Origin: a virus
DNA length: 64,000 nt
Virus record (IMG/VR): IMGVR_UViG_3300035698_027542
Span: 2,787-66,786 of that record
Reading direction: 5' to 3' (one strand)
In this document: positions 1-62,137 of the stretch, one piece after another
Numbering within the stretch: the first letter of the stretch is position 1
Layout: every line of letters starts with the position of its first letter
Translations under genes and position numbers: made by a program
The notes under the pieces: generated by a model
Told to the model about the DNA's origin: nothing
What the model saw: the letters and a program-made list of their open reading frames with translations, nothing else
The model's database searches: none

Positions 1-406
1 CATAAGCAATACAACAATGAGGATTATATACAGGGAATGTTTCTTTAACATCTAATTTTCTTTTTATTTTTCCATGTAATTTTCTTAAATCATCACTAAT
101 TATTTTGACTATTACAACATCAAAATCAGGACTTTTTCTAAAATAGCCTACTTCTCCTAGTTTTACTTTTATAGATTTGTATTCTGTAAGTATTTCTTCT
201 ACTTCTTTTCTACTATTTTCACAAACTCCATAAAGAAGTGTTATATGAGTGTCTAATTCTCTCCCTTTGCCTTCCTCTTCACATAACATAGAATTAGGTA
301 TATTATTCCTCCCCCACTTTTTAATCTTACTAGCAGGCATCTGGGGAAGTCTAACAGCAATCCATCCCTTACACTCTTTCTTCTTCGCTTTTTTATACCA
401 ATTCAT
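1..406 (-). CDS. 2H phosphoesterase, Acb1/T4 gp57B-like, with MNWYKKA leader (3' end runs off the window)
   Basis: Not in the ORF track. Manual translation from ATG 406: MNWYKKAKKKECKGWIAVRLP...GRELDTHITLLYG...YNPHCCIAY; two 2H motifs (HIT, HCC). Confidence 0.8.
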   Translation of the reverse strand, partial: MNWYKKAKKKECKGWIAVRLPQMPASKIKKWGRNNIPNSMLCEEEGKGRELDTHITLLYGVCENSRKEVEEILTEYKSIKVKLGEVGYFRKSPDFDVVIVKIISDDLRKLHGKIKRKLDVKETFPVYNPHCCIAY

Positions 407-445
407 ACAAATTTATTTCGATAAAAAATAAAAAATACCTTTAAT

Positions 446-475
446 AAAAAAGAGCCACTCGTAAAAGTGACTCTT
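446..475 (-). terminator. Intrinsic terminator
   Basis: AGAGUCACU-UUUACG-AGUGGCUCU hairpin followed by U-run on the minus strand. Confidence 0.75.
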
Positions 476-608
476 AGGGGCGTAGTTGAAGGGGTACTTC
501 AACTCGGGTCCACCAAGTTGGTTAAGCCAACTACTCTACCTTAGAGACCACATTGCTTAAGGCAATGACTCTTGACAAGTGGCTGTCAACCTTGTTTGAT
601 ACACTCTA
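446..608 (-). ncRNA. Putative structured small RNA, copy A
   Basis: Lies between a TTGACA/TATAAT promoter and a terminator; four hairpins; 29-nt core (509-537) identical to 2286-2314. Confidence 0.55.
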
Positions 609-614
609 TTTTAT

Positions 615-642
615 ATTATATCTTATATCTTTCACTTGTCAA
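615..642 (-). promoter_or_regulatory. Sigma70-type promoter
   Basis: TTGACA-agtgaaagatataaga(16)-TATAAT. Confidence 0.75.
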
Positions 643-980
643 TGAATTTTAATATCAGGAGGAGCTTTTAATTGCTCTATTACATAATCTATATCAATCT
701 CAAAATCTTCATAACCAGCTTTTCCCACTAATTTATTCATAGTATCAATTGAATCGTATATATTCTGCTTAATAATAGCAACTGTCATTTTTTTGATAAT
801 TTCTGGCTTATCGCGACAAGCTTTATTACTTGTAGCTATCATACTATTGGATTCACTTATATGATCTGGAAAAGCAGATAAAACTTCCCCATCTTTTAAC
901 ATTTCCCATTCTAATCCAGCCACATTGCATAATACAAAACTACCCTCTTTCTGAGGATGGCCGTTATATATTCTCTTCAA
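639..980 (-). CDS. Hypothetical protein, paralog of 3154..3513
   Basis: Shared KEGSFxLCNxAGxEWxMLKDGEVxSxFP and AGYxDFxIDIDY segments. Confidence 0.75.
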   Translation of the reverse strand: MKRIYNGHPQKEGSFVLCNVAGLEWEMLKDGEVLSAFPDHISESNSMIATSNKACRDKPEIIKKMTVAIIKQNIYDSIDTMNKLVGKAGYEDFEIDIDYVIEQLKAPPDIKIH

Positions 981-1001
981 TTTTCTACCATTCTGTTTCT
1001 C

Positions 1002-1337
1002 CTATAAATCTAAAATATCAACTCTTTCCGTAATTCTCTCTGCCTCGATTGCTGCCTTTTCCTCTTCTCTCCTTTTTATATCGTCAGAATACATAGGAAT
1101 TTCACACCAAGCATCAATACGGAATTCAGATGTTAAATCTGTATCTTTGTCTGGATTGTCAATAGATCTCCAATGTTTATTAGAATAATAAGATAAGGCA
1201 TACCAATTATAAACAGTATGATCAAATCGAGAATCAACAACATCAGGGCCTTGACCATACCAGATAGCTACAACAGTACCATCATCAGGTAATTTCTCAC
1301 TAGGCCTATACCACTTAAACTTGTCTATCATTCCCAT
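1002..1337 (-). CDS. Hypothetical protein (DUF551-like)
   Basis: WYRPSEKLP...IDAWCEIP pattern; start moved to ATG 1337 to remove overlap with the upstream gene. Confidence 0.55.
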   Translation of the reverse strand: MGMIDKFKWYRPSEKLPDDGTVVAIWYGQGPDVVDSRFDHTVYNWYALSYYSNKHWRSIDNPDKDTDLTSEFRIDAWCEIPMYSDDIKRREEEKAAIEAERITERVDILDL

Positions 1338-1341
1338 ATAT

Positions 1342-2163
1342 TTATATCGGAACTTCCTGCTGAACTTCATCTGGATATGTGTGATTGTTGATGATTTCCA
1401 TGTATTTGCCATAAACACCACCATACAGTTTGGGATCTGTGATCATTTTCTTATTTTTACTTATAAGACTATATAAAAGGTTTATAGCCTGTTGACGAGT
1501 CTGATAAGATAAAAGCCTATTTTTAAATTTTTGCCCATCTTCCCCCTCAAATTGTTTCCACCATTCTAACATTCTTGCACTATGACCCTTATCAGTTTCT
1601 TCCTTACTTCTAAATTCTTCATCATTAATTAATCCAGTTCTTTTCATATAATCTTTAGCAGTATTAGTGGTTATATTAAATTGTATAGCTACATTTTTTA
1701 AAGTCATTCCCTGTCCTCGAGGGGGAGGTAAATACATATCAACCATCTGCTTCCCTTTTTCCAATATGTTTGCCCTTACATCCTCCATTGATCCCCACTC
1801 TTTAATCTCTCTCCATCCATGCTCTTTATTAATTCTTCTGATAGCTGTGATAGACACTCCAAATAAATCAGCAATATTTTTATAAGTATACCCTTCTTCA
1901 ACAAGTGCTTTCATAACCTGAAGATCATCGTCAGACAAATTATTTTTATGAATATTCCCTTTATCCCTAATATTAACCCATTTATACTTATTATTTAATG
2001 CTCGAATTGAACCATGGCTGGTTCCAAACATATTTCCGATTTCTCTAGTAGAACGACCTTCTTCTAGTAATCTTTTTACTTTCTCTAATTCTTCTATGGT
2101 CCATCCTCTTTTTGCAGAACTTTTAGGCATTGCTATCTTTATATGTCTATTATACCAATTCAT
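1342..2163 (-). CDS. Multi-HTH DNA-binding protein with MNWY leader
   Basis: Three HTH-like repeats (G-x-S/T-x-x-x-IA/IG); begins MNWYNRHIKIA. Confidence 0.7.
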   Translation of the reverse strand: MNWYNRHIKIAMPKSSAKRGWTIEELEKVKRLLEEGRSTREIGNMFGTSHGSIRALNNKYKWVNIRDKGNIHKNNLSDDDLQVMKALVEEGYTYKNIADLFGVSITAIRRINKEHGWREIKEWGSMEDVRANILEKGKQMVDMYLPPPRGQGMTLKNVAIQFNITTNTAKDYMKRTGLINDEEFRSKEETDKGHSARMLEWWKQFEGEDGQKFKNRLLSYQTRQQAINLLYSLISKNKKMITDPKLYGGVYGKYMEIINNHTYPDEVQQEVPI

Positions 2164-2214
2164 AATTATCTATTTCTTAAATTCTTCTCAATATCCTTGA
2201 TATTTTTGGACATA

Positions 2215-2338
2215 AAAAAAGAGCAAGTGCTGTGCCCTGCTCTTTTCTGGAGGCGTGTGATTGGATAAGAATCCAGTCCGCCTGCTCCACCAAGTTGGTT
2301 AAGCCAACTACTCTTAAAAATCAACTACCCTTCGAGGA
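2215..2338 (-). ncRNA. Putative structured small RNA, copy B (ends in intrinsic terminator ~2215-2245)
   Basis: Promoter- and terminator-bounded; same 29-nt core as copy A followed by a different hairpin. Confidence 0.55.
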
Positions 2339-2344
2339 AATCTA

Positions 2345-2372
2345 ATTATACTATCTCACTTTCACTTGTCAA
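2345..2372 (-). promoter_or_regulatory. Sigma70-type promoter
   Basis: TTGACA-agtgaaagtgagatag(16)-TATAAT. Confidence 0.75.
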
Positions 2373-3117
2373 TAGTTATTTTACTAAATGCTTTATCTAT
2401 TTTTTCATTATTTTCCAATAATAATTCATTAATTCTTTCAACTCTTTTTCTCGCTTCTCCATCTTCTTCTGTCCACTTCTTTTGCCAAACATACTCATCA
2501 TCCCAACCAGAATATTTTCTACTCATTAAGACCCCTCTACCAGTTTGATGACACCAAAATTTATATAACATTAAACATGCTTCTTCTCTTCGATCACCAC
2601 GATCCCAATATCCCGTCTTTTCATCAAAAATACAATCAGATAAAAGAATAAATGCTACTCTAATATATGATTGAGGAATTTCTAAACACATTTCCCTAAT
2701 TGCTGTATCAAAAGGCCTTGAAATATTCCATTCTTGCACTCCTCGTTGAGAACATCTCCTAATCTCATCTAAATATCCCATATCCAAAGCAAAAATATGA
2801 TTCTTAATCTCTTCATCTAATTCTTCTGGTAAACTATTAATATAAGGGATTTCAATATCTGACCAAAAAAGTTTATTAAGTACTTTCTGTTTCTCTTTTT
2901 TTTGTAATTCATTAGCATTCCAGTCAAGTTTATACAATTTAACCCTTTTAGTCCAACTTGGCTTCTTATTTTTTACAACAATCCCACTCTTATTATCTCC
3001 ATCAGATGAAGGAGGGCCTTGAATAATAAAATCTTTCTGATAAACTAAAGATGGAAACAATAAACGATGATTCAATGATAACATAATACACCTCTTTCTT
3101 AAAAATGTTGTGACCAT
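2362..3117 (-). CDS. Hypothetical protein
   Basis: 251-aa ORF; no recognised motif. Confidence 0.6.
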   Translation of the reverse strand: MVTTFLRKRCIMLSLNHRLLFPSLVYQKDFIIQGPPSSDGDNKSGIVVKNKKPSWTKRVKLYKLDWNANELQKKEKQKVLNKLFWSDIEIPYINSLPEELDEEIKNHIFALDMGYLDEIRRCSQRGVQEWNISRPFDTAIREMCLEIPQSYIRVAFILLSDCIFDEKTGYWDRGDRREEACLMLYKFWCHQTGRGVLMSRKYSGWDDEYVWQKKWTEEDGEARKRVERINELLLENNEKIDKAFSKITIDK

Positions 3118-3153
3118 TCACAACTAACCCATTAATATCCATATATCGACAAA

Positions 3154-3513
3154 TTATATTTTTTCCATATCTTCAAAAGGAAATTTTAAATGCTTAATAA
3201 TATAATCTATATCAATATTAAAATCCTTATAACCTGCTTTTTCTGCTAATAGATTTATAGATTCAATTGAACAATGTACTTTCTCTGTAAGAATAGCAAC
3301 TGCCTTTCTCTTTAATAAATCATTATCCTCTTGCTTATCATCATTATTAATTGCTATCATATTAACAGCTTCTTCTTTATTATCTTCTGGAAAATTAGAA
3401 AAAACTTCTCCATCTTTTAACATTTGCCATTCAAAACCTGCCATATTACATAATATAAAACTTCCCTCTTTGTGTCTATTATCTTTCAAATACTCTCTTA
3501 AACTTTCTGCCAT
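3154..3513 (-). CDS. Hypothetical protein, paralog of 639..980
   Basis: Strong RBS (AGGAG); clear similarity to 639..980. Confidence 0.75.
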   Translation of the reverse strand: MAESLREYLKDNRHKEGSFILCNMAGFEWQMLKDGEVFSNFPEDNKEEAVNMIAINNDDKQEDNDLLKRKAVAILTEKVHCSIESINLLAEKAGYKDFNIDIDYIIKHLKFPFEDMEKI

Positions 3514-3980: not shown

Positions 3981-5816
3981 CTATTTTTTACAAAATACAA
4001 ATATAGGTTCAGTATGATAAGTTTCTCCCTTTTTTCTATTATAAGAACTATTAGCTAATCTCATATGATATGTTTTTTCTAATTTCCACCTATTCTCACA
4101 ATAATTACATAAATCATCTGCTATTTTTTTATCTCCGATATTTTTAATATTTAAAATTAAATACCCACTATCTTTTAATAATCTATAACTCTCACAAACT
4201 ATTTTATATAAAAAACTATTTAACCAATCTTGATATTCTGGATACTTACTACTACTCTGATCCAAATCGTTACTATAAATCTCTTGATTATGATAAGGAG
4301 GACTAGTAAATATTAATTCATATTTTTCTTCTAGTGTAGGCATTACCTCTTCTGCCAACCCCATGTCTTGTCTGAACTTATATTTATATACCCTTTCTCC
4401 CAAACCGTCATATTGAGTAGAAAAAAAACTTGCCATCTGCATATTGCCAACAGAACTTTCTCCATTAGGATCTATTCCATGATAAAATAAATTTCTATTA
4501 GAAGCAATACAACCTGCTAATCTACCACTATAACCAGAACAAGGATCTAAAACCCTACCTTCATTAGGACAGTAATTATCATAAATAAATTTAGCTATAG
4601 AAGGCTTAAAATTAACCACTCCTCTCGTGCCGTCTCTTGTTTTTAAAATTCTTCTTATACCAGCATGATTAGGAGTTTTCCCCAACTCAAGCCATCTATT
4701 AATACAATCCTTTAATTTACAATCATTATTAAATGTTTCTAAAGGAGAATTATCTCCTCTCTTATAATATGCCTCTATCATATGAGGGTGAAAACTATTA
4801 ACTAAATCCAACCCGTTAAAATTCATTTGTAAATGATTATCTTTTAACAAAATATTTTTAGATCTTATAATTCTACCCATTCTATTTTCTTTTTGCTCAT
4901 CTGTTAAAGTTACATGGGGAAAACCATTTCTTCTATAATATTGAAATAAAAGATCAACCACTTGTTTTTTTATCTTTTCATCTCCGTTCTTATAATATTC
5001 CAATATCTTCTTAAAATGTTTCGTATCCTCTATATCTTCCCAATAAATCATAGAACAATGACGAATATAATCACTTTTTTTTCTATTAAATAAAGATGAT
5101 TTAATTTTTATAATATTATGCTCAAAATCTGAAACTCTTAAAATAATATTTTCTTTCTTTATTTCCTTATTTATATTTTTTTTATTTTTATAAAATTTTA
5201 TAAATTCTTCTTGTAACTCTTTTTTTCTATTTATCCTAAATCCAATTTTACTACAATAATCAAAAGTATTAATAGTAAAAGTGAATGCCTCTTTTTGAGA
5301 CCTATTATTAGATTGTTTCCTCATCTCCCCCGTTCTAACACCTAATTTATTAATTATATTTTTAAAACTATCAGTCCAATAAGATATATTTTTAAAACCT
5401 ATTCTATATCTTATATAACCGTCAAAAGCATAAACTTTTGAAATCCACCCATCTGAATCCATTAGCCCTTGACAAAAACTTTTTTTAAACTCTTTATTTT
5501 TATATACGAATAAAGGTATTTTTTTCTTATCTTCTGTTAACTTCTTTAAAAAAAAGACAATTTGTTTAGAACAAACAACAAGTTGATAATAAGAAATTTT
5601 TCCTTCTTTTTTTACAGTTTTTATTCTTCCTTGCTTATCAAATAGATTATTAACTATATCTTGACACTTCTCGCAGAAATCATAATCTTCAGATGTTATA
5701 GAAAATTGATAGGTATCCTTACCGACATATAAGCAACCGTCCCCTAAAAGAGATCCTATTAAATAAGCAAAATCTTTTGTATATACATCCTTTAAAATAT
5801 CAATATTTTTAATCAT
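3981..5816 (-). CDS. LAGLIDADG endonuclease domain fused to an amino (N4C/N6A) DNA methyltransferase
   Basis: YLIGSLLGDG and FCQGLMDSDG motifs; MTase motif I VLDPCSGYSG and motif IV FTSPPY. Confidence 0.75.
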   Translation of the reverse strand: MIKNIDILKDVYTKDFAYLIGSLLGDGCLYVGKDTYQFSITSEDYDFCEKCQDIVNNLFDKQGRIKTVKKEGKISYYQLVVCSKQIVFFLKKLTEDKKKIPLFVYKNKEFKKSFCQGLMDSDGWISKVYAFDGYIRYRIGFKNISYWTDSFKNIINKLGVRTGEMRKQSNNRSQKEAFTFTINTFDYCSKIGFRINRKKELQEEFIKFYKNKKNINKEIKKENIILRVSDFEHNIIKIKSSLFNRKKSDYIRHCSMIYWEDIEDTKHFKKILEYYKNGDEKIKKQVVDLLFQYYRRNGFPHVTLTDEQKENRMGRIIRSKNILLKDNHLQMNFNGLDLVNSFHPHMIEAYYKRGDNSPLETFNNDCKLKDCINRWLELGKTPNHAGIRRILKTRDGTRGVVNFKPSIAKFIYDNYCPNEGRVLDPCSGYSGRLAGCIASNRNLFYHGIDPNGESSVGNMQMASFFSTQYDGLGERVYKYKFRQDMGLAEEVMPTLEEKYELIFTSPPYHNQEIYSNDLDQSSSKYPEYQDWLNSFLYKIVCESYRLLKDSGYLILNIKNIGDKKIADDLCNYCENRWKLEKTYHMRLANSSYNRKKGETYHTEPIFVFCKK

Positions 5817-5949: not shown

Positions 5950-5983
5950 AAAAAAAGAGTGAGCCATTTCTGACCCACTCTTT
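5950..5983 (-). terminator. Intrinsic terminator after the major capsid gene
   Basis: AGAGUGGGUCA-GAAA-UGGCUCACUCU-UUUUU. Confidence 0.8.
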
Positions 5984-14944: not shown

Positions 14945-15361
14945 TTATCCCTTAACGTGCCTTGGAATTTCGATAGTGGCTAATTGTTCAACAGTATAAT
15001 TAGGAGCACCTTTAGGAAATGGAATACCCCACTTTTCAGAAGCGTGGCTAAGAGCAGCTACTGAACTGGTGAAATATTCACCACTTGGAGCATATACTTT
15101 TGCTTTGGGGTCATCTGGCAACTTCTTAATCCCAGAAAAGAATCGTTTTGCCCCATCTCTAGTTAAAGAAGGTCCCATAACCACAAAATAATCAGAGTTT
15201 GTAGTATAGTCGTGACCTTCCCATCTTATATAAGATAATTGACCAAGCTGTTTGTCAAATCTCTTTTTTAATTTTTGAGATCTTTCATGGTACCCTGGTT
15301 TCCAATCAATCCCTCTATCTCTTATTCTTTTTCTGCCCGAAAATTTAAGTAGTGTCTCCAT
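14945..15361 (-). CDS. Hypothetical protein (head module)
   Basis: 138-aa ORF directly downstream of portal. Confidence 0.6.
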   Translation of the reverse strand: METLLKFSGRKRIRDRGIDWKPGYHERSQKLKKRFDKQLGQLSYIRWEGHDYTTNSDYFVVMGPSLTRDGAKRFFSGIKKLPDDPKAKVYAPSGEYFTSSVAALSHASEKWGIPFPKGAPNYTVEQLATIEIPRHVKG

Positions 15362-18300
15362 TTTCTATATTCCCTATATATAAAATTTGTCCGTGTGGGA
15401 TAGATGTCCTACTACAGCCTATCTTTCCTTTAGAAAGACAATATTCATACAAAGGGTTCGTCCCGTCTCCTTCTACAGAAGCTGTTTTTATTAAAGCTCC
15501 ATCTTCTGCTTTTTTTCTACTTTTGCTTGCATCTGCCATATGGCTAACAATTGTATCTCTTACTGCATCTATATTTTCATTTACAGCAGCCTCATTAAAT
15601 CTCAACACTCTCCAACCCACATTAGCTAATTTATTATCTCTCTGAAGATCTCTTTGCTGAAAATCCTCTCTCTCATGCCAAATTGCTCCATCTACTTCTA
15701 TCCCAACTCCGATTTTTGGATAAGCAAAATCAATAGCATAAGGTCTTGACTCTCCTGGAACTTTCACCTGATACTGAGCAAATAAATCATGAGGAGTATT
15801 CATGTCCGAAAGAGTCCTAAACATTTTTTGTTCTAACTTTGTTAGTTTAATCATTTTTGGAGGAAGAGTTTGTTCTTCTTCTTGTTTATTTTTAGAACCT
15901 CTTTTCCCTATTTTTGGCAACTCTCCAGAAGCGGCCGCTCCCATAGATGGTGCTCCCCCAGCACCTCCCATTGGAGCGCCTCCCATGCCTCCCATTGGAG
16001 CACCCCCCATTTCACCGCCTGGAGCGCCGCCTGGCATACCTCCACCCATGTCTCCACCTGGCATACCTCCAGCCATACCTCCACCCATATCTCCACCCAT
16101 CGGGCCTCCACCCATTGGAGCGCCGCCCATTGCATCGCCGCCCATCCCCGCTACCATCCCATTTGCCTGGGCCATAATTTGTTCTTCTCTTATTTTCTCA
16201 ACTTCTGAATCATAATCTAAATCCATTTCTTCAAGAACTGTTTGTGCTGAAACCATTCCTTTATCATACATTTGCATTAAGGTTTGTATTCTATTTGTTT
16301 TATCTCTAAGCTGTAAATCATTCCATGTAAGTTTAGGATATAAATAAGCTATTTCTTCAATCTCTTTAGATTCCTCTTCATCTATAAACCCCTGCATCAT
16401 AGCCACAGGTTTAAAAATATTAATTTCTACCCATGTTTTTAATTTATTTCTCCAGTTATCTAATCTTCTAATAAGAACTTCAATACCAACTTGTGCCGAA
16501 TTGCCCTGAACAGTTACTACTCCATTTCTCATAGTAACAAATAATTCATAAGGAACAGAAAAACAATATACATTATCGTTATAAGGAACTCTTGTTATCT
16601 CTTTCCCTGCATATTTTTTAGATTTAGAATAAAGAGTAGGAGTTCTTCCCTTAAACCCCTTAGAAATATATACAACATATTGTTGATGCCTAGTTATATA
16701 TTCATGTCCATTTTTATTAAAATATTTTTTATTCTTAGATTCTTTTTTATTATATTCTCTAATTTTAGTTACATAGCCACATTTGAATGCTATTTCTGCA
16801 AAATCTTCTGCAAGTTGTTTACTAGAAGTATAATAAGATTGACCTTTAACTTTTCTATTCTCTCCAATATGATTATGAACACAACCATCTCCATTAATCA
16901 TAGCTTCTAATACTATCTCTAAACATTCAGGTGTTAGATTTTTTACAAATGGAGAAAGTTTTTTATTAATAAATCCTTTTCCAAAATTATTACTAAGATA
17001 TAATGCTAAATCTGGCTTATAAGTAGATACATGCGTTTTTCCTACATAATGTTTCTCAAACATGCTATCAAATAATTCTTCAATATCTTCTCTTGCCTCA
17101 CTATCTCTATTTTGACTAATTCCAACAACTGTTTGTTTTCTTGTTCTATTTTTTCTTTTTTCTTTAGTAGTCCATCCCTCAGAAACATAGTATCCAACCA
17201 TTTTACAATAGTCATAAATAGAATACTTTTCATCTCCTATTTGAATTGATTTTTGATATTCTCCTTCATAACCATCTACTGCTCCTATAAATTTAGATCT
17301 TGAACGAATTTCATCCGCTCTCGTAAATTTGTAATCATTAGATCCTCTTTTAGCACTCCACATCCTATGATTAGGAGTTACTAGAATATCTATTTTATCA
17401 GTGTTAAAGTGAACCATCTCTCCATCATAATCATAAACCATTTTCTTATATGGAAGATGATATTCTATTTTTTTAGTCTCAGGATTATAACAAGCGATCT
17501 TATCTTTCTTAGGATCTATCTCCCGATAACTTTTAAAGCCAGAATCACAAAGAGTTTTGGTATCAGCACTTAGGCACGTATATCCAGCCATTTCCCCATT
17601 TAATATAGCTTGATTAAGCATAAGACCATCAAGAATTTCTTTTCCAACTTGTTCTATTTCTGCTGTAATATTATGAATTTTTCCTGTTGCTCCATACCAC
17701 TCATAATCAAAAGCGTGATGTGTAACAATAGTCAAATTAGGGTCATTAGCAACTGCCGCTAGTTGATTCTGAACGTCTTGCAAATCAGTATCAGTTGCAG
17801 GTCTATCTTTATCCCCCACCTTTACAACCCTAACAGGAAGAATTAATCTTTCAGCAACAATCCAGTTAGCAGTCATAATTTTTGTTTTATAAGCTAAAAC
17901 TGTAAATAACCTTTGGAGCATTGATGTCCCATATGTCCCATAATCACTAGCATTATGTTTTAAATGACTAATACATCTATCTGACAATCTAACAGGCTGA
18001 CCAGACGAAACCGCTCTAATCAATCCTGCTGGCAAACTATCATATATACTTCTTGGTTCTTTTCTTGAAACAATAAGTTTTAATTCTTCATCTGGAACTA
18101 GATAATACTCTGGATTACTTGCTAAGGGATTATCTCTGACATCCAGATAATCAGGATTCATCAACTTGATACTTTTAAAAGTTCCATCAGCATGATTACA
18201 TAATTCTCCATCTGCTTTTCTTCCCTTCCCTCCACAATTAGGACATTCTATTTCTGCAAATGGGAAGACATCACCAATAAGAAAATATTCATGGCTAATA

Positions 18301-18731
18301 GCATTAAGCTTTTCTGGAAGATCCAGTTTCTCTGATAACCTCTCATAAAATTTTAAGATTTTCTTAGATTTACATTCTAATTTAAAACCATTCATAGAAA
18401 AATTAGAATAAAAATCTACTCCTGCTGCAACCTTAGGTTCGTTCATGTAGTAAAAACGAGACCATTGCATTATCTCTCTTCTACGACTTGCTATCTGCCA
18501 ATTCTGAGGTGTATGTAACGGGGAAAAGAACATGGGTTGCGTCATTGCAACTCCAGCTCCTGATCCTGCAAATTGTGCATTTTTTGTAATTGGAATATTG
18601 ACTACTGTAGAATTAGGCCAACCGCTTTTGCTAACTGGAGCATTAGCAGCAGGTGCATTATAAGCTCCCGATGCAGCAGCAAGTCTTTGTTTATTTTTTG
18701 GTGAATTATCTGGTAAAATAAATTTTGCCAT
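15345..18731 (-). CDS. Portal protein with intein, Gly/Met-rich linker and C-terminal DUF559/Vsr-like nuclease domain
   Basis: Portal-type motifs (EYFLIGDVF, MNPDYLDV, YGTSML); position in head module; IDFAY...IEVDG..WH...RD..L...GWRVLRF at the C-terminus. Confidence 0.75.
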   Translation of the reverse strand: MAKFILPDNSPKNKQRLAAASGAYNAPAANAPVSKSGWPNSTVVNIPITKNAQFAGSGAGVAMTQPMFFSPLHTPQNWQIASRRREIMQWSRFYYMNEPKVAAGVDFYSNFSMNGFKLECKSKKILKFYERLSEKLDLPEKLNAISHEYFLIGDVFPFAEIECPNCGGKGRKADGELCNHADGTFKSIKLMNPDYLDVRDNPLASNPEYYLVPDEELKLIVSRKEPRSIYDSLPAGLIRAVSSGQPVRLSDRCISHLKHNASDYGTYGTSMLQRLFTVLAYKTKIMTANWIVAERLILPVRVVKVGDKDRPATDTDLQDVQNQLAAVANDPNLTIVTHHAFDYEWYGATGKIHNITAEIEQVGKEILDGLMLNQAILNGEMAGYTCLSADTKTLCDSGFKSYREIDPKKDKIACYNPETKKIEYHLPYKKMVYDYDGEMVHFNTDKIDILVTPNHRMWSAKRGSNDYKFTRADEIRSRSKFIGAVDGYEGEYQKSIQIGDEKYSIYDYCKMVGYYVSEGWTTKEKRKNRTRKQTVVGISQNRDSEAREDIEELFDSMFEKHYVGKTHVSTYKPDLALYLSNNFGKGFINKKLSPFVKNLTPECLEIVLEAMINGDGCVHNHIGENRKVKGQSYYTSSKQLAEDFAEIAFKCGYVTKIREYNKKESKNKKYFNKNGHEYITRHQQYVVYISKGFKGRTPTLYSKSKKYAGKEITRVPYNDNVYCFSVPYELFVTMRNGVVTVQGNSAQVGIEVLIRRLDNWRNKLKTWVEINIFKPVAMMQGFIDEEESKEIEEIAYLYPKLTWNDLQLRDKTNRIQTLMQMYDKGMVSAQTVLEEMDLDYDSEVEKIREEQIMAQANGMVAGMGGDAMGGAPMGGGPMGGDMGGGMAGGMPGGDMGGGMPGGAPGGEMGGAPMGGMGGAPMGGAGGAPSMGAAASGELPKIGKRGSKNKQEEEQTLPPKMIKLTKLEQKMFRTLSDMNTPHDLFAQYQVKVPGESRPYAIDFAYPKIGVGIEVDGAIWHEREDFQQRDLQRDNKLANVGWRVLRFNEAAVNENIDAVRDTIVSHMADASKSRKKAEDGALIKTASVEGDGTNPLYEYCLSKGKIGCSRTSIPHGQILYIGNIENGDTT
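16500..17576 (-). mobile_element. Intein (359 aa) with LAGLIDADG domain, in portal
   Basis: YT/CLSADT ... VTPNHRM ... GYYVSEG ... AMINGDG ... VYCFSVP ... VQGN/S. Confidence 0.9.
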
Positions 18732-37491: not shown

Positions 37492-40400
37492 TTAACTACA
37501 CCTACTAAAACCACAAGAAGTACAACTTATGCAGCCTTCCATTCTTTTTAGTTCTCCTCCACACTCTGGACATTCTTCTCCATGAACCATTTCTCCATCT
37601 TCTATATATTTTTTAAGAACCCTACAAATAGCTTTAGCAAACCCCATTAAGTCCCCTTTTGTTTTTTCTAGTTGATGAACTATAAAATCAATTCCACATC
37701 CATGTCTTAAATTGCTTGATATTAATCTAGTTATTGCTTCTTGTTCTTCATCTATATATTCAGAAATATTATCATAAACTATTTCTTCATTTCCTATTTT
37801 ACAAATTGCATATTCCCCTCTTTTAATTTTTTTAATAACCATTTTTTCTGAACTAATTTTAAAATCATCATTTTTACCAGCAAATATTTCATACGGCTCA
37901 ACACCATTTAATAATCCGATTATAACAAAATATCTTTCTCCCTTAACTGTTGCTTGGTGAATATTACACCTTAATAACCTAGGCCTTTTAGGAGCATGAT
38001 TTTTTATAATACGAGATTTTTCTTCTTCTTCTTTTTGTTTTGTAGAATCTATTAAAACGCCTGTTCTACAATTCTTCCTATAAATTGTAATTCCCTTACA
38101 ACCTTGTTTCCATGCTTCTGTATATATTTTTGAAATTTCTTCTTTTGTAACGTCTTCTGGCAAATTTATTGTACTACTAATACTATGATCTATATATTTA
38201 TTAGCAGTTGATTGAACTTTAATTCTATCTTTCCAATTAACTTTTTCCGCACAACAATTGTACCATGGAGATTTTGTAATATCTTCTTCTCCTGTCACTT
38301 CTTTCCATTTTTCAATTTTTGGATGAACAACTTCAAATTCTTGCCACTTATCTCCATTATCATCTACAAAATCAACTCTATTATTTTTATCTTCTGCGTT
38401 TATTTTTTTTCTACGTTTATATGATAATTCAAAAACTGGTTCTATCCCAGAAGATGTTTGTGTCATAATTGAAACGCTACCTGAGGGTGCAAGCGTTAGT
38501 AATCCTATATTTCTCCTTCCATACTTTTTCATATCTTTCCATAGATTTTCATCTTCTTCTTTTATCCTTAATAAAAAAGGATTGTTTTTTTCTAAATTAT
38601 GGTTCCAAACAGGAAAAGATCCTAATTCTTGAGCCATATCAACAGAAGATCTATAACAACCTAATTTTAAAGTTTTAAATATTTTTTCTATAAAAAAAAT
38701 ACTTTTTTTAGAACCATATTCTAAACCACAAGCAGCAAGAGTATCAGCTACTGCATTTACTCCTGTACCTGTTCTTCTTCCATCTTGACATGCTTTTTTA
38801 ATTTTTTCCCACAACTCTAATTCATCTCTTTTAATCTCTAATGGCTCAGGATCTTTTTTAACTTTATTAATTATTCTATTTATATGCTCTATTTCTAAAT
38901 CAATCATATCATCCATTAATCTTTGAGCTATTTGAGTATAATTATAAAATTTATCAAAATCAAATTCTGAATTTTTAGAAAATGGATTATTAACAAAACT
39001 ATATAAATTTAATAATAATAAACGACAAGAATCATGTTCACTTAAAGGTAGCTCAGAACAAGGATTCGTCCCAACTGTTTTAAACCCGAAATCAGAATAA
39101 CAATCTGCTGGACTTTCTCTAATAATATTATCCCACAACAAAAGACCTGGCTCTCCCATAGCATGAGCATTTTCTATAATTTCATCCCATACTTGTTTTG
39201 CATTTACCATTTGAGAAAATTTAATATCTTTACCTATTGCATCTACTGGAAATCTTTGCTCATATTCTGTATTATCATTTATCGCTTTTAAAAATTCATC
39301 TGATAATCTAATTGAAAGATTAGCCCCTGTCACCTTTGTTAAATCTCTTTTTATTTTTGCGAAAGATAAAACTTCTGGATGATGAATAGAAATTGTTATA
39401 ATTAATGCTCCTCTTCTTCCTGCTTGTCCAACCTCCCGAATACTATTACTAAATCTCTCCATAAAAGGAATAATACCTGTACTTGTTTTTGCTGCGTTTG
39501 TGGTTAAAAAACCTTTAGGTCTTAAATTAGAGATATCTATACCTATTCCACCTCTTCTTTTTGAAATATTCACTATTTCTTCATCTGTTTTACAAATTCC
39601 TGAATAGCTATCTAATGGAGATGCTCCTACAAAACAATTTTTACACACAATCCCTTCGACAGAATAAGAATTGTCATTTTCAACACCTAAATTATATACA
39701 AAATCATCCTTTTTTATGCAAATATCCTTATTATCTATACGAACAAAATATTGCCCATCGATATTAATAGTTTTAAATGTTGATATTTTCCGATTTATCA
39801 AAATATTAATTCTATTATCAGAATATTTTTTATTACAATTTATTAACAACTCATTATTGTTTGAAAAAGAAAGCCTTGAGTATTTTGGTTGCCCTGCTCC
39901 TTTTGCTATTCTTGCAACAATATTTCTAGAACGACATAAAAAATAGAAAGATTCAATAAGAGAGGTATTATTAAGAACAACTCTTAGCTCTCCATCTTTT
40001 GTAATTGTTCCATCTGAGTCTATAAGCCCTTGTATCAAATTTATTACTAGTTTTCTTGGCCATTTATACGCTTCTTTATAAAGTTTTTTTCCATCACACA
40101 TCCTCCCAAAAAGCTTTTCAAAAACAATACCGATTAAAACACTATGAAAAACAATTTGACAAGTTCCGTCAATATGCTGATTATAATTAATATCTGGTTT
40201 AATTCCAAAGATTTTTTCTCCATGTCTAGAAACAAATTTAATTATTTTTTCTTCATGAGAACCAAAAGTAAAAGTTATCCCTCTAATACTTTTGCGCTTA
40301 ATTGTATTCCTGTTGCTTTTTTTATTTCTCATCCCAGAGGTTTTGCTAGAATTATTAGAAAACACGCAACCGTCTCCGTACCATAGCCCTAAAAAATAAC

Positions 40401-41244
40401 AAAAATCTTCATTTATTTCCCATATATTGTTAATAGATTTTTTATGTTTTTGAAATATATCTTTTTTATTCTTTGTTCTATGTTCGCATTTTGTATGAAG
40501 AGCAATGGTTTTATTCTTATTTAATTCCAATTTATATGAGATATCTTCCGAGGTAAAAGATTCCTCCATAATTTTTTGGATATTAATATTATTAAACGGC
40601 TTTATACCCTCTTCTTTTAATGATGGAACCGCTATAAAATCTCCCACTCTTAAATAAGAAACCTCATTCCACTGAGGATTTTCTCCCCATTTTTGTTGCT
40701 CTTTAGATATTGACCAGAAACGATGATTTATTGTTGTTTTAAAAGAAGGTGTCCCATAACATTTAATATTATACATTTTATTCTCATACTTATTTTTATG
40801 AGTTTGCTTAACCTCTTCAATATTTCCTTTATGAGTTATAACTCTATCTCCGATACTAACATCTTCAATATTTTTAACCCCATCTAACGTAAAAACCCTA
40901 GTCCCTTTAGAGAAACAATTCGAAAGACTAACATATCTATGAAAGTCCCCTATCCCGCTTAACCCACTACCTTGAGGAATAATATATCTAAAATCTTTAA
41001 AATAATTATATATATCTTCTTCATTTATTGGATTTTTAAATTTATTTTTTTCTATTCTAGCAAATTCTTTTGCTAATCTATGATGCATTTTATCAGGAGT
41101 GTCTTCTAATATTCCCCCCCCTTCGTTCTTTAATGCATATTTATCTATAAAAACTTTTGATGCTAAATCGTCCCCATTAAAATACTCAATGCTCTTTTTT
41201 AAAGAAGCATTGTAATCATAAATCTCTGTCATAAAGCTCTCCAT
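37492..41244 (-). CDS. nrdJ: Class II (AdoCbl-dependent) ribonucleotide reductase with intein
   Basis: SLSN/CF, TNPCSE, APSGS, SSGIEP, KGITIYR, C-terminal CPEC..EGC..C..CGFSRC; no NrdB seen in the window. Confidence 0.88.
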   Translation of the reverse strand: MESFMTEIYDYNASLKKSIEYFNGDDLASKVFIDKYALKNEGGGILEDTPDKMHHRLAKEFARIEKNKFKNPINEEDIYNYFKDFRYIIPQGSGLSGIGDFHRYVSLSNCFSKGTRVFTLDGVKNIEDVSIGDRVITHKGNIEEVKQTHKNKYENKMYNIKCYGTPSFKTTINHRFWSISKEQQKWGENPQWNEVSYLRVGDFIAVPSLKEEGIKPFNNINIQKIMEESFTSEDISYKLELNKNKTIALHTKCEHRTKNKKDIFQKHKKSINNIWEINEDFCYFLGLWYGDGCVFSNNSSKTSGMRNKKSNRNTIKRKSIRGITFTFGSHEEKIIKFVSRHGEKIFGIKPDINYNQHIDGTCQIVFHSVLIGIVFEKLFGRMCDGKKLYKEAYKWPRKLVINLIQGLIDSDGTITKDGELRVVLNNTSLIESFYFLCRSRNIVARIAKGAGQPKYSRLSFSNNNELLINCNKKYSDNRINILINRKISTFKTINIDGQYFVRIDNKDICIKKDDFVYNLGVENDNSYSVEGIVCKNCFVGASPLDSYSGICKTDEEIVNISKRRGGIGIDISNLRPKGFLTTNAAKTSTGIIPFMERFSNSIREVGQAGRRGALIITISIHHPEVLSFAKIKRDLTKVTGANLSIRLSDEFLKAINDNTEYEQRFPVDAIGKDIKFSQMVNAKQVWDEIIENAHAMGEPGLLLWDNIIRESPADCYSDFGFKTVGTNPCSELPLSEHDSCRLLLLNLYSFVNNPFSKNSEFDFDKFYNYTQIAQRLMDDMIDLEIEHINRIINKVKKDPEPLEIKRDELELWEKIKKACQDGRRTGTGVNAVADTLAACGLEYGSKKSIFFIEKIFKTLKLGCYRSSVDMAQELGSFPVWNHNLEKNNPFLLRIKEEDENLWKDMKKYGRRNIGLLTLAPSGSVSIMTQTSSGIEPVFELSYKRRKKINAEDKNNRVDFVDDNGDKWQEFEVVHPKIEKWKEVTGEEDITKSPWYNCCAEKVNWKDRIKVQSTANKYIDHSISSTINLPEDVTKEEISKIYTEAWKQGCKGITIYRKNCRTGVLIDSTKQKEEEEKSRIIKNHAPKRPRLLRCNIHQATVKGERYFVIIGLLNGVEPYEIFAGKNDDFKISSEKMVIKKIKRGEYAICKIGNEEIVYDNISEYIDEEQEAITRLISSNLRHGCGIDFIVHQLEKTKGDLMGFAKAICRVLKKYIEDGEMVHGEECPECGGELKRMEGCISCTSCGFSRCS
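39637..40917 (-). mobile_element. Intein (427 aa) with LAGLIDADG domain, in RNR
   Basis: SN/CFSKGT ... TTINHRF ... GLWYGDG ... GLIDSDG ... VYNLGVE ... VCKN/C. Confidence 0.92.
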
Positions 41245-54253: not shown

Positions 54254-54414
54254 TTTGTGTCTCCTATTTAATATATACGGGGTTTTATTTGATATTCCTC
54301 TTTTTTATCGATAATTTTTAAATTCTTCTTGACAAAAGTGAAAATATAGTATAATATAGGGAAATAGAGAGATAATTAAAAATCCAGACAAACTAAATTT
54401 GAGAATTATAGAAT

Positions 54415-57260: not shown

Positions 57261-57800
57261 ATGAATTGGTATAAAAAAGCATCTTATATAGCTTATCATG
57301 GAACTCCTAAAGATTTCCAAGATTTCTCTTATGAATATCTTGGAACTAATGGGACTGCGGAAGGTTTTGGTTTTTATTTTACTAGTGATAAAAATATAGC
57401 TGAAGGATATGCTGAAGGGGGCATATTAAAAAAAGTCAATCTTGATATTAAAAAACCATTAAACCCTATAATTTTTAGTATTTCTAAACCAGAATTTGCT
57501 ATATTTTTAAAAACATTAGATCCTACAGGAGAAGATTATTTATCAAATTGGGGAGAATCTAACTATGAGGGATATGATAAAATTTTAAACACTGCCGTTG
57601 AAGGAGAGTTTTCTGGATCAGATAATGATGTAGATTTAATATCAGGAGTGATACAAGCAGCAGGTGGAAATGCAGAGCGCATATATAAAATACTAAAACA
57701 AACACTAGGTTATGATGGTATTATTGTTAATAAGCCATCATGGGGTGGCAATCAAATTATTTACATAGTATTTGATAATAATCAAATTAAGAATATATAA
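57261..57800 (+). CDS. ADP-ribosyltransferase-like protein (ART-PolyVal type) with MNWYKKA leader
   Basis: AYHGT...F..F.....G...G.GFYFT....A.GYA...L.IKKP...GYDGII......YIVF...QIK. Confidence 0.75.
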   Translation: MNWYKKASYIAYHGTPKDFQDFSYEYLGTNGTAEGFGFYFTSDKNIAEGYAEGGILKKVNLDIKKPLNPIIFSISKPEFAIFLKTLDPTGEDYLSNWGESNYEGYDKILNTAVEGEFSGSDNDVDLISGVIQAAGGNAERIYKILKQTLGYDGIIVNKPSWGGNQIIYIVFDNNQIKNI

Positions 57801-58556: not shown

Positions 58557-59096
58557 ATGAATTGGTATAAAAATATATTGACAAGTGATTATAGAAATGA
58601 TATAATTCCAAATATGGATAAAAAGATGATCATAATGAGGGGAACACCTGCCTCAGGAAAAAGTTTTTTAGCTAATCAATTAGTAGGAGAAGCAGGAGAA
58701 ATCTTCTCAGCAGATGATTTTCATACAAATCCAGAGACTGGAGAATATAATTGGAAACCAGAAAATGTAAAAAGATCTCATCAGTGGAACCATGAAAGAG
58801 TTAATAAGGCTATAGAAGAAGGAATCTCTCCTATTGTTATCGATAATACCCATATTAAACTATGGGAACTTAAAGCATTAAAACCTCTTGTTCAAAAAGC
58901 GCAAACACAAGGTTATGATATAAGAATAGAAGAACCCAATCCCAACTGGTATCACTGGAACACTGCTTTTGACCCTAAGGCCCTATATGAAAGAAACAAA
59001 GAAACACATAATGTTCCATTTGAATCAATTGAAAAAATGGTTAAAAACTATCAACCAGATATTACTGTTGATGATATTTTAAAAGAAGAAAATTAA
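58557..59096 (+). CDS. P-loop kinase (AAA_33/N4BP2 polynucleotide-kinase-like) with MNWYK leader
   Basis: IMRGTPASGKS, SADDF, VIDNTH, RN..HNVP. Confidence 0.8.
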   Translation: MNWYKNILTSDYRNDIIPNMDKKMIIMRGTPASGKSFLANQLVGEAGEIFSADDFHTNPETGEYNWKPENVKRSHQWNHERVNKAIEEGISPIVIDNTHIKLWELKALKPLVQKAQTQGYDIRIEEPNPNWYHWNTAFDPKALYERNKETHNVPFESIEKMVKNYQPDITVDDILKEEN

Positions 59097-60735: not shown

Positions 60736-60806
60736 GCCTTGACCTCATTGGCTGAGAAAGGTTTTTCCGAAAAACCTTCATAAGGGTTCGAGTCCCTTTC
60801 AAGGCA
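60736..60806 (+). tRNA. Non-canonical tRNA-like RNA, anticodon CCG (Arg)
   Basis: Acceptor GCCTTGA/TCAAGGC; T arm AAGGG-TTCGAGT-CCCTT; 7-bp anticodon stem. Confidence 0.6.
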
Positions 60807-60991: not shown

Positions 60992-61062
60992 GCAAATATA
61001 GTATAACGGCATTATATGGCCTTCCCAAGGCTAAGATTCGGGTCCGATTTTCGCTTTTTTTA
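60992..61062 (+). pseudogene. Degenerate tRNA-Gly(CCC)
   Basis: D arm TAGTATAACGGCATTAT and anticodon arm TGGCC-TTCCCAA-GGCTA intact; T arm and 3' acceptor strand decayed. Confidence 0.55.
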
Positions 61063-61077
61063 TGTCCAAAAATCACT

Positions 61078-61105
61078 TGACAAAATAGAGAGAAAGTAGT
61101 ATAAT
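61078..61105 (+). promoter_or_regulatory. Sigma70-type promoter
   Basis: TTGACA followed by TATAAT at canonical (16-17 nt) spacing. Confidence 0.75.
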
Positions 61106-62066: not shown

Positions 62067-62137
62067 TGCCCTTTAGTGTAATGGCAGCACGAAACGTTCT
62101 GAGCGTTTTAGTTTTGGTTCAAATCCAAAAGGGGCAG
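62067..62137 (+). tRNA. tRNA-Gln(CTG)
   Basis: TGCCCTT/AGGGGCA acceptor; AAACG-TTCTGAG-CGTTT anticodon arm; TTTGG-TTCAAAT-CCAAA T arm; no encoded CCA. Confidence 0.88.

Follow-up and report, generated by a model that had tools for sequence, protein, structure and literature searches.

The 64,000-nt stretch analysed here (the window; bases 2787-66786 of the 66,786-bp IMG/VR virus record IMGVR_UViG_3300035698_027542) carries on its minus strand two units, A and B, each of which runs from a consensus promoter through a conserved module hairpin (P1) and a second hairpin (P2) to an intrinsic terminator. On the evidence of sequence comparison, these units represent a real and previously undescribed family of structured RNAs of very large salt-lake phages. 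Its members share sequence, three helices and strand, and are followed by variable genes. The window is AT-rich (31.8% G+C), fits the standard genetic code well and belongs to a record with a CheckV completeness of 14%. Because its capsid-like protein and gene order were found again in a 547,943-bp record rated 100% complete (G002), the sequence most probably derives, as a fragment, from a phage of roughly half a megabase. The DNA runs containing the window are labelled salt lake metagenome.

The two units share an identical 29-mer, AGAGTAGTTGGCTTAACCAACTTGGTGGA, which was confirmed at the two minus-strand sites given in a preliminary description of this DNA (509-537 and 2286-2314). No further match with up to three mismatches is present in the window (shuffles with any match, 0 of 100), and the whole 66,786-bp record holds these two copies only. 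With promoters counted, unit A spans approximately 642-446 and unit B approximately 2372-2214; the sites of the units originally placed at 608-446 and 2338-2215 were right, and their spans had to be extended. As had been proposed, a promoter stands upstream and an intrinsic terminator downstream of each copy. Both promoters (TTGACAAGTGAAAG...TATAAT) match the consensus at 12 of 12 positions with a 16-nt spacer, and the distance from promoter to 29-mer copy is 30-90 nt in both units. The unit A promoter (615-642, minus strand; TTGACA, 16 nt, TATAAT; spacer beginning AGTGAAAG) contains within its -35 region the stop codon of the open reading frame (ORF) 639-980, according to the ORF listing, and the unit B promoter (2345-2372, minus strand; TTGACA, 16 nt, TATAAT) holds the stop codon of ORF 2362-3117. 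Both units end in a G+C-rich terminator-like hairpin followed by a T-run (stems 475-450 and 2238-2220, minus strand): the terminator of unit A (446-475, minus strand) reads AAGAGUCACU...GAGUGGCUCUU and then a U-run, and that of unit B (2214-2246, minus strand) reads AAAGAGCAGG...CUUGCUCU and then U7.

Covariation and strand of the three helices

The conserved module is 31 nt long and consists of (U/A)AGAGU, a 6-bp stem, a CUUAA loop and UGG(U/A)GG. Unit A contains two modules, the first of which (A-M1; 543-573, minus strand) is the additional CUUAA-loop hairpin of the preliminary description: it is composed of AAGAGU, the stem CAUUGC/GCAAUG, the loop CUUAA and then UGGUCUCU, forms 6 of 6 pairs and scores 43.4 bits (E 2e-10) with a covariance model of the module. 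The second, core module (A-M2; 508-538, minus strand, containing the 29-mer at 509-537) is composed of UAGAGU, the stem AGUUGG/CCAACU, the loop CUUAA and then UGGUGGAC, and scores 51.5 bits. The single core module of unit B (2285-2315, minus strand, containing the 29-mer at 2286-2314) scores 50.5 bits. One module is present in B and in the homologous units L004, L008 and G002, two in A, L007 and G003, and four in L006, with a period of 35-40 nt, or 60 nt where P2 intervenes.

Covariation was assessed on 14 modules, 13 of them distinct, from 8 distinct units in 7 phage contigs. The stem is paired in 78 of 78 cells of the 13 distinct modules, and both partners vary at five of its six pair positions, a single position showing as many as five pair types; the covariation score was reached by 0 of 500 shuffles, and no more than 47% of cells were paired in slid-partner controls. 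These covarying stems speak against a core conserved as a DNA site alone, an outcome that the preliminary description had named as refuting its reading. Stem sequences differ even among modules of one transcript; the module of G002 adds a new stem (GAUAGG/CCUAUC), and one of the two modules of G003 has the loop CUUUA. In the window, the covariance model found three matches of at least 43 bits, the next best scoring 12.1 bits, and within the metagenome loci it likewise matched only the units. By record, there were three module matches in G000, none in G001, one in G002 (150 of 246 candidates scored) and two in G003, corresponding to units at two places in G000 and at one each in G002 and G003. 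The pentamer AGAGU precedes every hairpin including the terminator, and its 18 occurrences in 1,239 nt of units compare with 1.22 per kb for that strand in the window as a whole.

P2 is an imperfect hairpin that follows the last module, with the Gs of GGUGG and a C-run closing it. In unit A (477-514, minus strand) it is formed by GUUGAAG/CUUCAAC, with GCCCC as the C-run, and its fold has -13.1 kcal/mol (4 of 200 shuffles as stable); in unit B (2249-2291, minus strand) it is formed by GGAG..GGCGGA.CUGGAU / AUCCA..UC..CGCC.UCC, with -15.0 kcal/mol (7 of 200 shuffles as stable). These are the variable hairpins described before, and they end as described, in ACGCCCC and ACGCCUC, respectively. A hairpin fold was obtained for P2 in each of 10 cases, and the apical stem is homologous between phages with compensatory changes (GUUGAAG/CUUCAAC in A, GUUGAAU/AUUCAAC in G002; GUUGAAUG/CAUUCAAU in L007 vs GUUAAGUG/CAUUUAAU in L006). 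The variable part is hence a base-paired, homologous hairpin and not a free single strand, which disfavours the earlier idea of a scaffold plus guide. RNAalifold recovered the terminator, whose upper part shows compensatory changes; within its conserved base, AGAGUC...GGCUCU, six of eight units have a U.G pair. Single-sequence folding gave the order P1-P2-terminator in seven of eight units; the whole-unit fold of unit B prefers an alternative for P1, and a 76-nt fold shows P1. A terminator after the capsid-like gene (5954-5983, minus strand) has the base AAAGAG...CUCUUU, the same as in the RNA units, and the AGAG/CUCU base may be a general terminator style of this phage.

Unit A also carries, in its 5' leader, a hairpin with the arms UUGACA/UGUCAA and the loop GCCACU (572-589, minus strand). 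Its complement repeats TTGACAAGTG, as noted before, and its 3' arm pairs with the promoter copy.

The G.U pairs, the asymmetric flanks and the placing of the promoter before and the U-run after the hairpins indicate a minus-strand RNA as the likely product of the units, and not a DNA site or a plus-strand RNA. Three stem cells in the modules are G.U, and on the plus strand the G.U pairs of modules and terminators would read as A.C mismatches. A DNA site bound by a dimeric protein is disfavoured, since the stems vary yet pair while the loop and the asymmetric flanks stay fixed, the opposite of the pattern expected. The plus-strand hairpins ending in UCCACCA, previously likened to tRNA minihelices, are simply the complement of UGGUGGA; promoters, terminators and G.U pairs all lie with the minus strand, and neither ARAGORN (no tRNA or tmRNA at 446-2372) nor the Rfam tRNA model found a tRNA there, so that this comparison is disfavoured.

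Relatives of the units and database searches

Pattern scans revealed homologues of the units in six other distinct phage contigs: L004, L006, L007, L008, G002 and G003. The exact 23-mer core was found at five loci among metagenome contigs (L004-L008), of which L005 is identical to unit A across the stretch compared, and the other four are different phage contigs. Scanning a viral collection for AGAGT-N6-CTTAA-N6-TGGTGG, with pairing not required, gave 12 matches; two of them (G002 and G003) have 6 of 6 stem pairs together with the unit promoter and terminator, and the other ten reach no more than 3 of 6. Neither the viral collection nor a set of 50,697 phage records contains the exact core. 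Two further relaxed scans added no member; one of them, the third pattern scan of the viral collection, gave 16 matches, 14 of them new, none of the 14 with 6 of 6 pairs. One viral match, L035 (5 of 6 pairs, 26.3 bits), lies where an ORF ends in a GC-richer phage that is unrelated, and was rejected as due to chance. A blastn search with unit A against the 50,697 phage records returned 19 records with a best E of 0.2 and at most 27% query coverage, which were judged to be noise.

No known RNA family accounts for the units. Rfam 15 at gathering threshold found only two tRNA matches in the window, far from the units, and at E<=10 the search of positions 1-3200 gave seven weak matches, all far below gathering, the best being HIV_GSL3 (22.5 bits vs 42). 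Together with the homologues in six other contigs and the covarying stems, this upholds the suggestion of an unrecognised phage RNA family, for which an Rfam search had been named as one check. The complement of the single-stranded core (TCCACCAAGTT, up to one mismatch) occurs at five sites in the window besides the units, two of them in gene sense and both of these inside one ORF, with no convincing target among them.

The core is identical among phages whose neighbouring 2H proteins (described below) are 65-68% identical. Units A and B, flanked by paralogues with 46% identity, likewise have the core in identical form. Its identity where the neighbouring proteins have diverged to 65-68% argues for selection on the function of the core.

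The genome searches bear on one particular function, mimicry of a host CRISPR repeat, in which the module would copy the repeat, a Cas6-type enzyme would bind and cut it, and Cas proteins would be diverted to dead-end complexes. Such noncoding RNAs, known as RNA anti-CRISPRs (Racr) or solitary repeat units (SRUs), occur in phages, and as described in PMC10651486 they resemble the present units in being small, in having a strong promoter of their own and a repeat-sized stem-loop with a short 3' tail, and in lying apart from cas genes and among counter-defence-like genes. The same paper describes the Cas6f stem-loop and 8-nt handle. The units likewise have a strong promoter upstream and no cas genes nearby: the neighbouring proteins are without Cas domains, and counter-defence-like genes (Acb1-like 2H, ART, GNAT) are found in the vicinity. 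The geometry of the module, in which 5 nt precede a stem of 6 bp with a loop of 5 nt and a 3' tail of 7-8 nt follows (approximately 29 nt in all), resembles that of Cas6-processed repeats. However, the exact 22-mer core had no match across 185,579 prokaryotic species, each represented by one genome, a set that may lack the host, and no module-like CRISPR repeat was found there. A relaxed pattern matched the same set 26 times; these matches, which were judged non-homologous, are single-copy, have stems paired at 3-4 of 6 positions and are in no case array-like. They form two groups, of 21 and 5 loci, within each of which the flanks are nearly identical, and we regard them as stretches of conserved coding sequence that happen to match the pattern. 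Moreover, unlike the repeats of an array, the stems differ among modules of one transcript, and the module is followed by a conserved second hairpin and a terminator, not by spacer-like unique sequence. Repeat mimicry is thus considered improbable.

Genes behind the units and the MNWY start

The gene behind unit A (2-406, minus strand) runs out of the window; its full-length version (L001:874-1398, minus strand) starts with MNWYKKA and encodes a 174-aa 2H phosphoesterase of LigT/Acb1-like type (PF13563, 31.8 bits; PF23474 Acb1, 24.8 bits, below its cut-off). The gene behind unit B (1342-2163, minus strand) starts with MNWYNRH and encodes a 273-aa protein with repeated helix-turn-helix (HTH) motifs similar to sigma-70 region 4 and HTH_7 (PF04545, 1.3e-11). 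A 2H phosphoesterase gene stands directly behind the unit in A, L004, L006 and G003, the orthologues being 65-68% identical, and it is preceded by a conserved spacer, AAAGG..CGAAA..AUG (by reading). The first motif of the 2H protein is H-x-T (HITL), and the second is H-C-C in the window, H-S-C in L006 and H-x-T in L003, G003 and L007. Elsewhere other genes follow: a Sulfotransfer_2-like gene in G002 (21.8 bits vs a cut-off of 22), a gene for a 145-aa protein without assigned family in L008, and a convergent GH15-like gene in L007, where it separates the unit from the 2H gene. In G001, a 2H orthologue (65% identical) lies directly behind another gene, without a unit. Because the downstream genes vary and G001 has the 2H gene without a unit, the RNA and the gene behind it are separable.

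Each unit had initially been linked to an MNWY gene, that is, one whose product starts with MNWY. This link holds behind units A and B and is not specific, G002 and L008 being without an MNWY gene behind the unit and L007 having an opposite-strand gene there. The MNWY start (ATGAATTGGTAT) heads seven genes of the record, two of which follow a unit: MNWY(K/N)(K/R/N) starts are located at 395-406 and 2152-2163 (minus strand), at 57261, 57802, 58160 and 58557 (plus strand) and in L001:652-840 (minus strand). The seven genes encode the 2H phosphoesterase, the multi-HTH protein, an ART-PolyVal protein, a GNAT protein, a protein with an unassigned domain, an AAA_33 kinase and a 62-aa protein. By the pattern ATGAAYTGGTAY, such starts number 7 in G000, 4 in G001, 12 in G002 and 5 in G003 (reversed control, 0); they are clustered in G001, G002 and G003, and one heads a HicA-like protein in G002. 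Judged by this distribution, MNWY is a general N-terminal motif of this phage group and no feature of the RNA. It may represent a shared targeting or processing tag, carried by enzymes with accessory or counter-defence roles of the kind fused in the polyvalent proteins of other phages. No relevant literature on 'MNWYK' was found.

Upstream of each RNA unit lies one of two paralogues (639-980 and 3154-3513, minus strand; 46% identical) of a family of small proteins with the signature 'KEGSF...AGYKDF'. The family has no Pfam or PHROG match, and a protein search found nothing in the viral collection; it is present in L006, L007 and G003 and absent from G001 and G002. The promoter type of the units is general for this phage and not peculiar to them: the window contains five perfect TTGACA...TATAAT promoters vs 0.21 expected, three of them away from the units on the plus strand (54329-54355, 58578-58606 and 61077-61105). 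Two of these three share the AAGTGA spacer start with the RNA units, and the one at 58578 lies in the ORF of the MNWY kinase.

The layout of promoter, modules repeated with a 35-40-nt period, terminator and protein gene resembles that of type III toxin-antitoxin systems, in which ToxI arrays of tandem modules of approximately 36 nt and a ratio-setting terminator precede the toxin gene. By analogy, the RNA modules would neutralise the 2H phosphoesterase behind the terminator as ToxI does ToxN, and a 2H gene indeed stands directly behind four of the eight units. The downstream protein is, however, a 2H phosphoesterase and not a ToxN/AbiQ-type endoribonuclease, and no ToxN domain (PF13958) was found in G000-G003, in a search whose control was silent. 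Only one module is present in units B, L004 and L008, the modules are simple spaced hairpins, and no Rfam type III antitoxin family matches. Furthermore, RNA and downstream gene occur apart, the RNA without a nearby 2H gene in B, G002 and L008 and the 2H gene without the RNA in G001. A toxin-antitoxin pair of this kind is very improbable.

The units occupy a variable accessory-gene spot between capsid and fibre genes, where signs of exchange are visible. The stretch AUGUCCAAAAAUA after the terminator is common to unit B and the unit of L004, yet the two units precede different genes. In the public run X3, a single 3,842-nt contig of a related phage, approximately 82% alike, joins position 407 to 2146, skipping 1,738 bp, and places the spacer of the window's HTH gene before the 2H gene. 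This junction and the stretch shared with L004 suggest that units or genes may have been swapped at the shared MNWY start or within units.

Such exchange could also be explained at the level of DNA, the block serving as a recombination site that shuffles accessory genes and the RNA arising as a by-product. PeSLs of T4-like phages, described in PMC4122927 as composite terminator/promoter sequences that mediate indels in hyperplastic regions, are similar in that a conserved early promoter and stem-loop block lies by variable accessory genes with signs of swapping. Three observations agree with this: the genes behind the unit differ among related phages, AUGUCCAAAAAUA is shared before different genes, and the X3 contig connects one MNWY start region to the other. 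Recombination, however, needs identity and not covariation, and here the stems vary yet pair, with strand-specific G.U pairs, in a structured RNA of 100-200 nt whose covarying helices lie between promoter and terminator. PeSLs are also numerous in a genome, unlike the units, of which each record has one or two, including the complete 548-kb genome. The identical core despite 65-68% protein identity indicates functional selection. There is accordingly only a slim chance that the units are mobile DNA cassettes of this kind.

Other features of the window include LAGLIDADG/intein-type insertions (3981-5816, 15345-18731 and 37492-41244, all on the minus strand): a Hint and a LAGLIDADG domain lie inside the large subunit of ribonucleotide reductase, LAGLIDADG_3 and DUF559 occur in a 1128-aa ORF, and a 611-aa ORF has a LAGLIDADG-like motif at its start and a C-terminal part that matches stand-alone ORFs of L007. 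ARAGORN called a tRNA-Arg(CCG) at 60736-60806 and a tRNA-Gln(CUG) at 62067-62137 (plus strand); Rfam disagrees in part, matching the one at 62067 (56.3 bits) and, weakly, 60992-61062 (plus strand; 30.9 bits), and not the one at 60736.

Candidate functions of the RNA

The function tentatively favoured, at somewhat less than an even chance, is that of an abundant, early-made, trans-acting small RNA that binds a protein as a decoy or sponge, the terminator also limiting read-through into accessory genes. We infer that the units are transcribed and that the RNA is abundant and bound by protein. The consensus sigma-70-type promoter would drive a minus-strand structured RNA of roughly 110-260 nt to the strong intrinsic terminator. 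Since its loop and asymmetric single-stranded flanks are invariant and its stem need only pair, the module would be the recognition hairpin for a protein, which the RNA would bind or titrate in trans with a capacity set by the module copy number. The terminator would set how much read-through mRNA reaches the accessory genes (2H phosphoesterase and small MNWY proteins). Action in trans is favoured because of the fixed loop and flanks with free stems, the variable module number, the independence from the downstream gene and a conservation of the core that exceeds that of its neighbours. A cis leader tied to one gene family is disfavoured because the downstream genes differ, and in L007 read-through would yield antisense RNA only. 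Variable module number is the pattern of titrating RNAs, such as sponges of the CsrB/RsmZ type and ToxI arrays. CsrB and RsmZ also have several hairpins with an invariant loop/flank motif and free stems, in variable number, and a Rho-independent terminator; unlike them, the present RNA is phage-encoded, and its motif is AGAGU-stem-CUUAA-stem-UGG and not a GGA loop.

The main rival is a leader acting in cis by antitermination or attenuation, in the manner of lambda nut, HK022 put or a protein-dependent attenuator, in which the hairpin, with or without a phage or host factor, would let polymerase read through the terminator. The hairpin would modify RNA polymerase or the folding of the leader, and without the factor only a short RNA would be made. 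Lambda nut and HK022 put are short conserved RNA hairpins just downstream of early sigma-70 promoters and before intrinsic terminators; each phage has two similar copies, put is made up of two hairpins, and the boxB loop is a GNRA-like pentaloop. The present units are similar in that an RNA element, preceded by an early promoter and followed by a terminator, forms part of the leader of co-directional genes, except in L007, and P1 and P2 can be compared with the two hairpins of put. Promoter, conserved hairpins, terminator and co-directional genes are found in seven of eight units; the two units in one phage with the same promoter type recall nutL and nutR; and no promoter-like site lies between the terminator and the 2H gene, the spacer there being conserved (by reading). 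Unit A, the 2H gene and the gene for the 62-aa MNWY protein are bracketed by a further terminator-like hairpin (L001, approximately 485-515). In four of seven units the 5' leader could pair with the 3' arm of the terminator nominally better than approximately 95% of shuffled leaders; for unit A, 11 of 300 shuffles gave an equally good duplex of leader and terminator arm, and the pairing of GUGGUCUCU with the terminator, which the preliminary description had raised, amounts to approximately 4-5 bp by inspection alone.

Other features speak against antitermination. The complementarity of leader and terminator is missing in three of seven units, and P2 and the terminator do not overlap, so that no alternative fold is obligatory. 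The loop is CUUAA and not the GNRA-like pentaloop of boxB, and where nut has a single boxB, the leaders here have between one and four modules. No boxA-like element was identified, G000-G003 contain no NusG-like protein or paralogue, and the next gene in L007 is convergent. Only one unit is present in the complete 548-kb phage (150 of 246 candidates scored), and transcripts of the upstream operon would carry the element too. An antitermination leader is therefore a serious though unlikely alternative.

Several observations weigh against the trans-acting, protein-binding RNA itself. The family is small, with 8 distinct units in 7 phage contigs. Among the listed runs, RNA runs number 0 of 16; all runs containing the stretch are DNA, and four of them (X1-X4) are DNA contigs, which are silent on transcripts. 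A regular expression demanding at least 5 of 6 pairs was the first to find five non-core modules (winA_M1, L006_M1, L006_M2 and L007_M1, as well as L006_M4 by position), so that the complete pairing of the modules is partly due to selection; this expression set no condition on the AGAGU/UGG flanks, and the modules of G002 and G003 were found without a pairing condition. P2 is more stable than 95% of shuffles in only 5 of 10 cases and was not recovered as a consensus helix by MAFFT/RNAalifold. No candidate partner emerged among proteins: the 'KEGSF' family is not an obligate partner, being absent from G002, which has the RNA, and NusG, Csy4 and ToxN domains were not found in G000-G003 (the ToxN control being silent). 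Finally, no recognisable promoter lies between the terminator and the ATG of the 2H gene in A, L004, L006 and G003 (by reading); since the 2H gene thus lacks its own promoter in four loci and follows a conserved spacer, the terminator would also limit its expression, and a component acting in cis is likely.

A more specific function, counter-defence, is distinctly unlikely. The RNA would then be an early, very abundant multi-hairpin decoy that soaks up a hairpin-recognising host immune protein, possibly a Cas6-like processing enzyme, an anticodon-type nuclease or an undescribed RNA-binding sensor. It would form a cassette with the Acb1-like 2H phosphodiesterase and other MNWY-tagged counter-defence enzymes, the terminator fixing the ratio of RNA to enzyme. 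If true, phages of half a megabase would possess a new family of anti-defence modules that are based on RNA.

Very large phages contain much unexplained non-coding sequence, and few RNAs have been described from them. The RNA units, which are conserved more strongly than the surrounding proteins, offer a concrete object for experiments and could bring to light either a new pairing of RNA and recognising protein by which phages control genes or a counter-defence based on RNA. The MNWY tag, found on enzymes of kinds that are elsewhere fused in 'polyvalent' phage proteins, may provide a second, independent lead.

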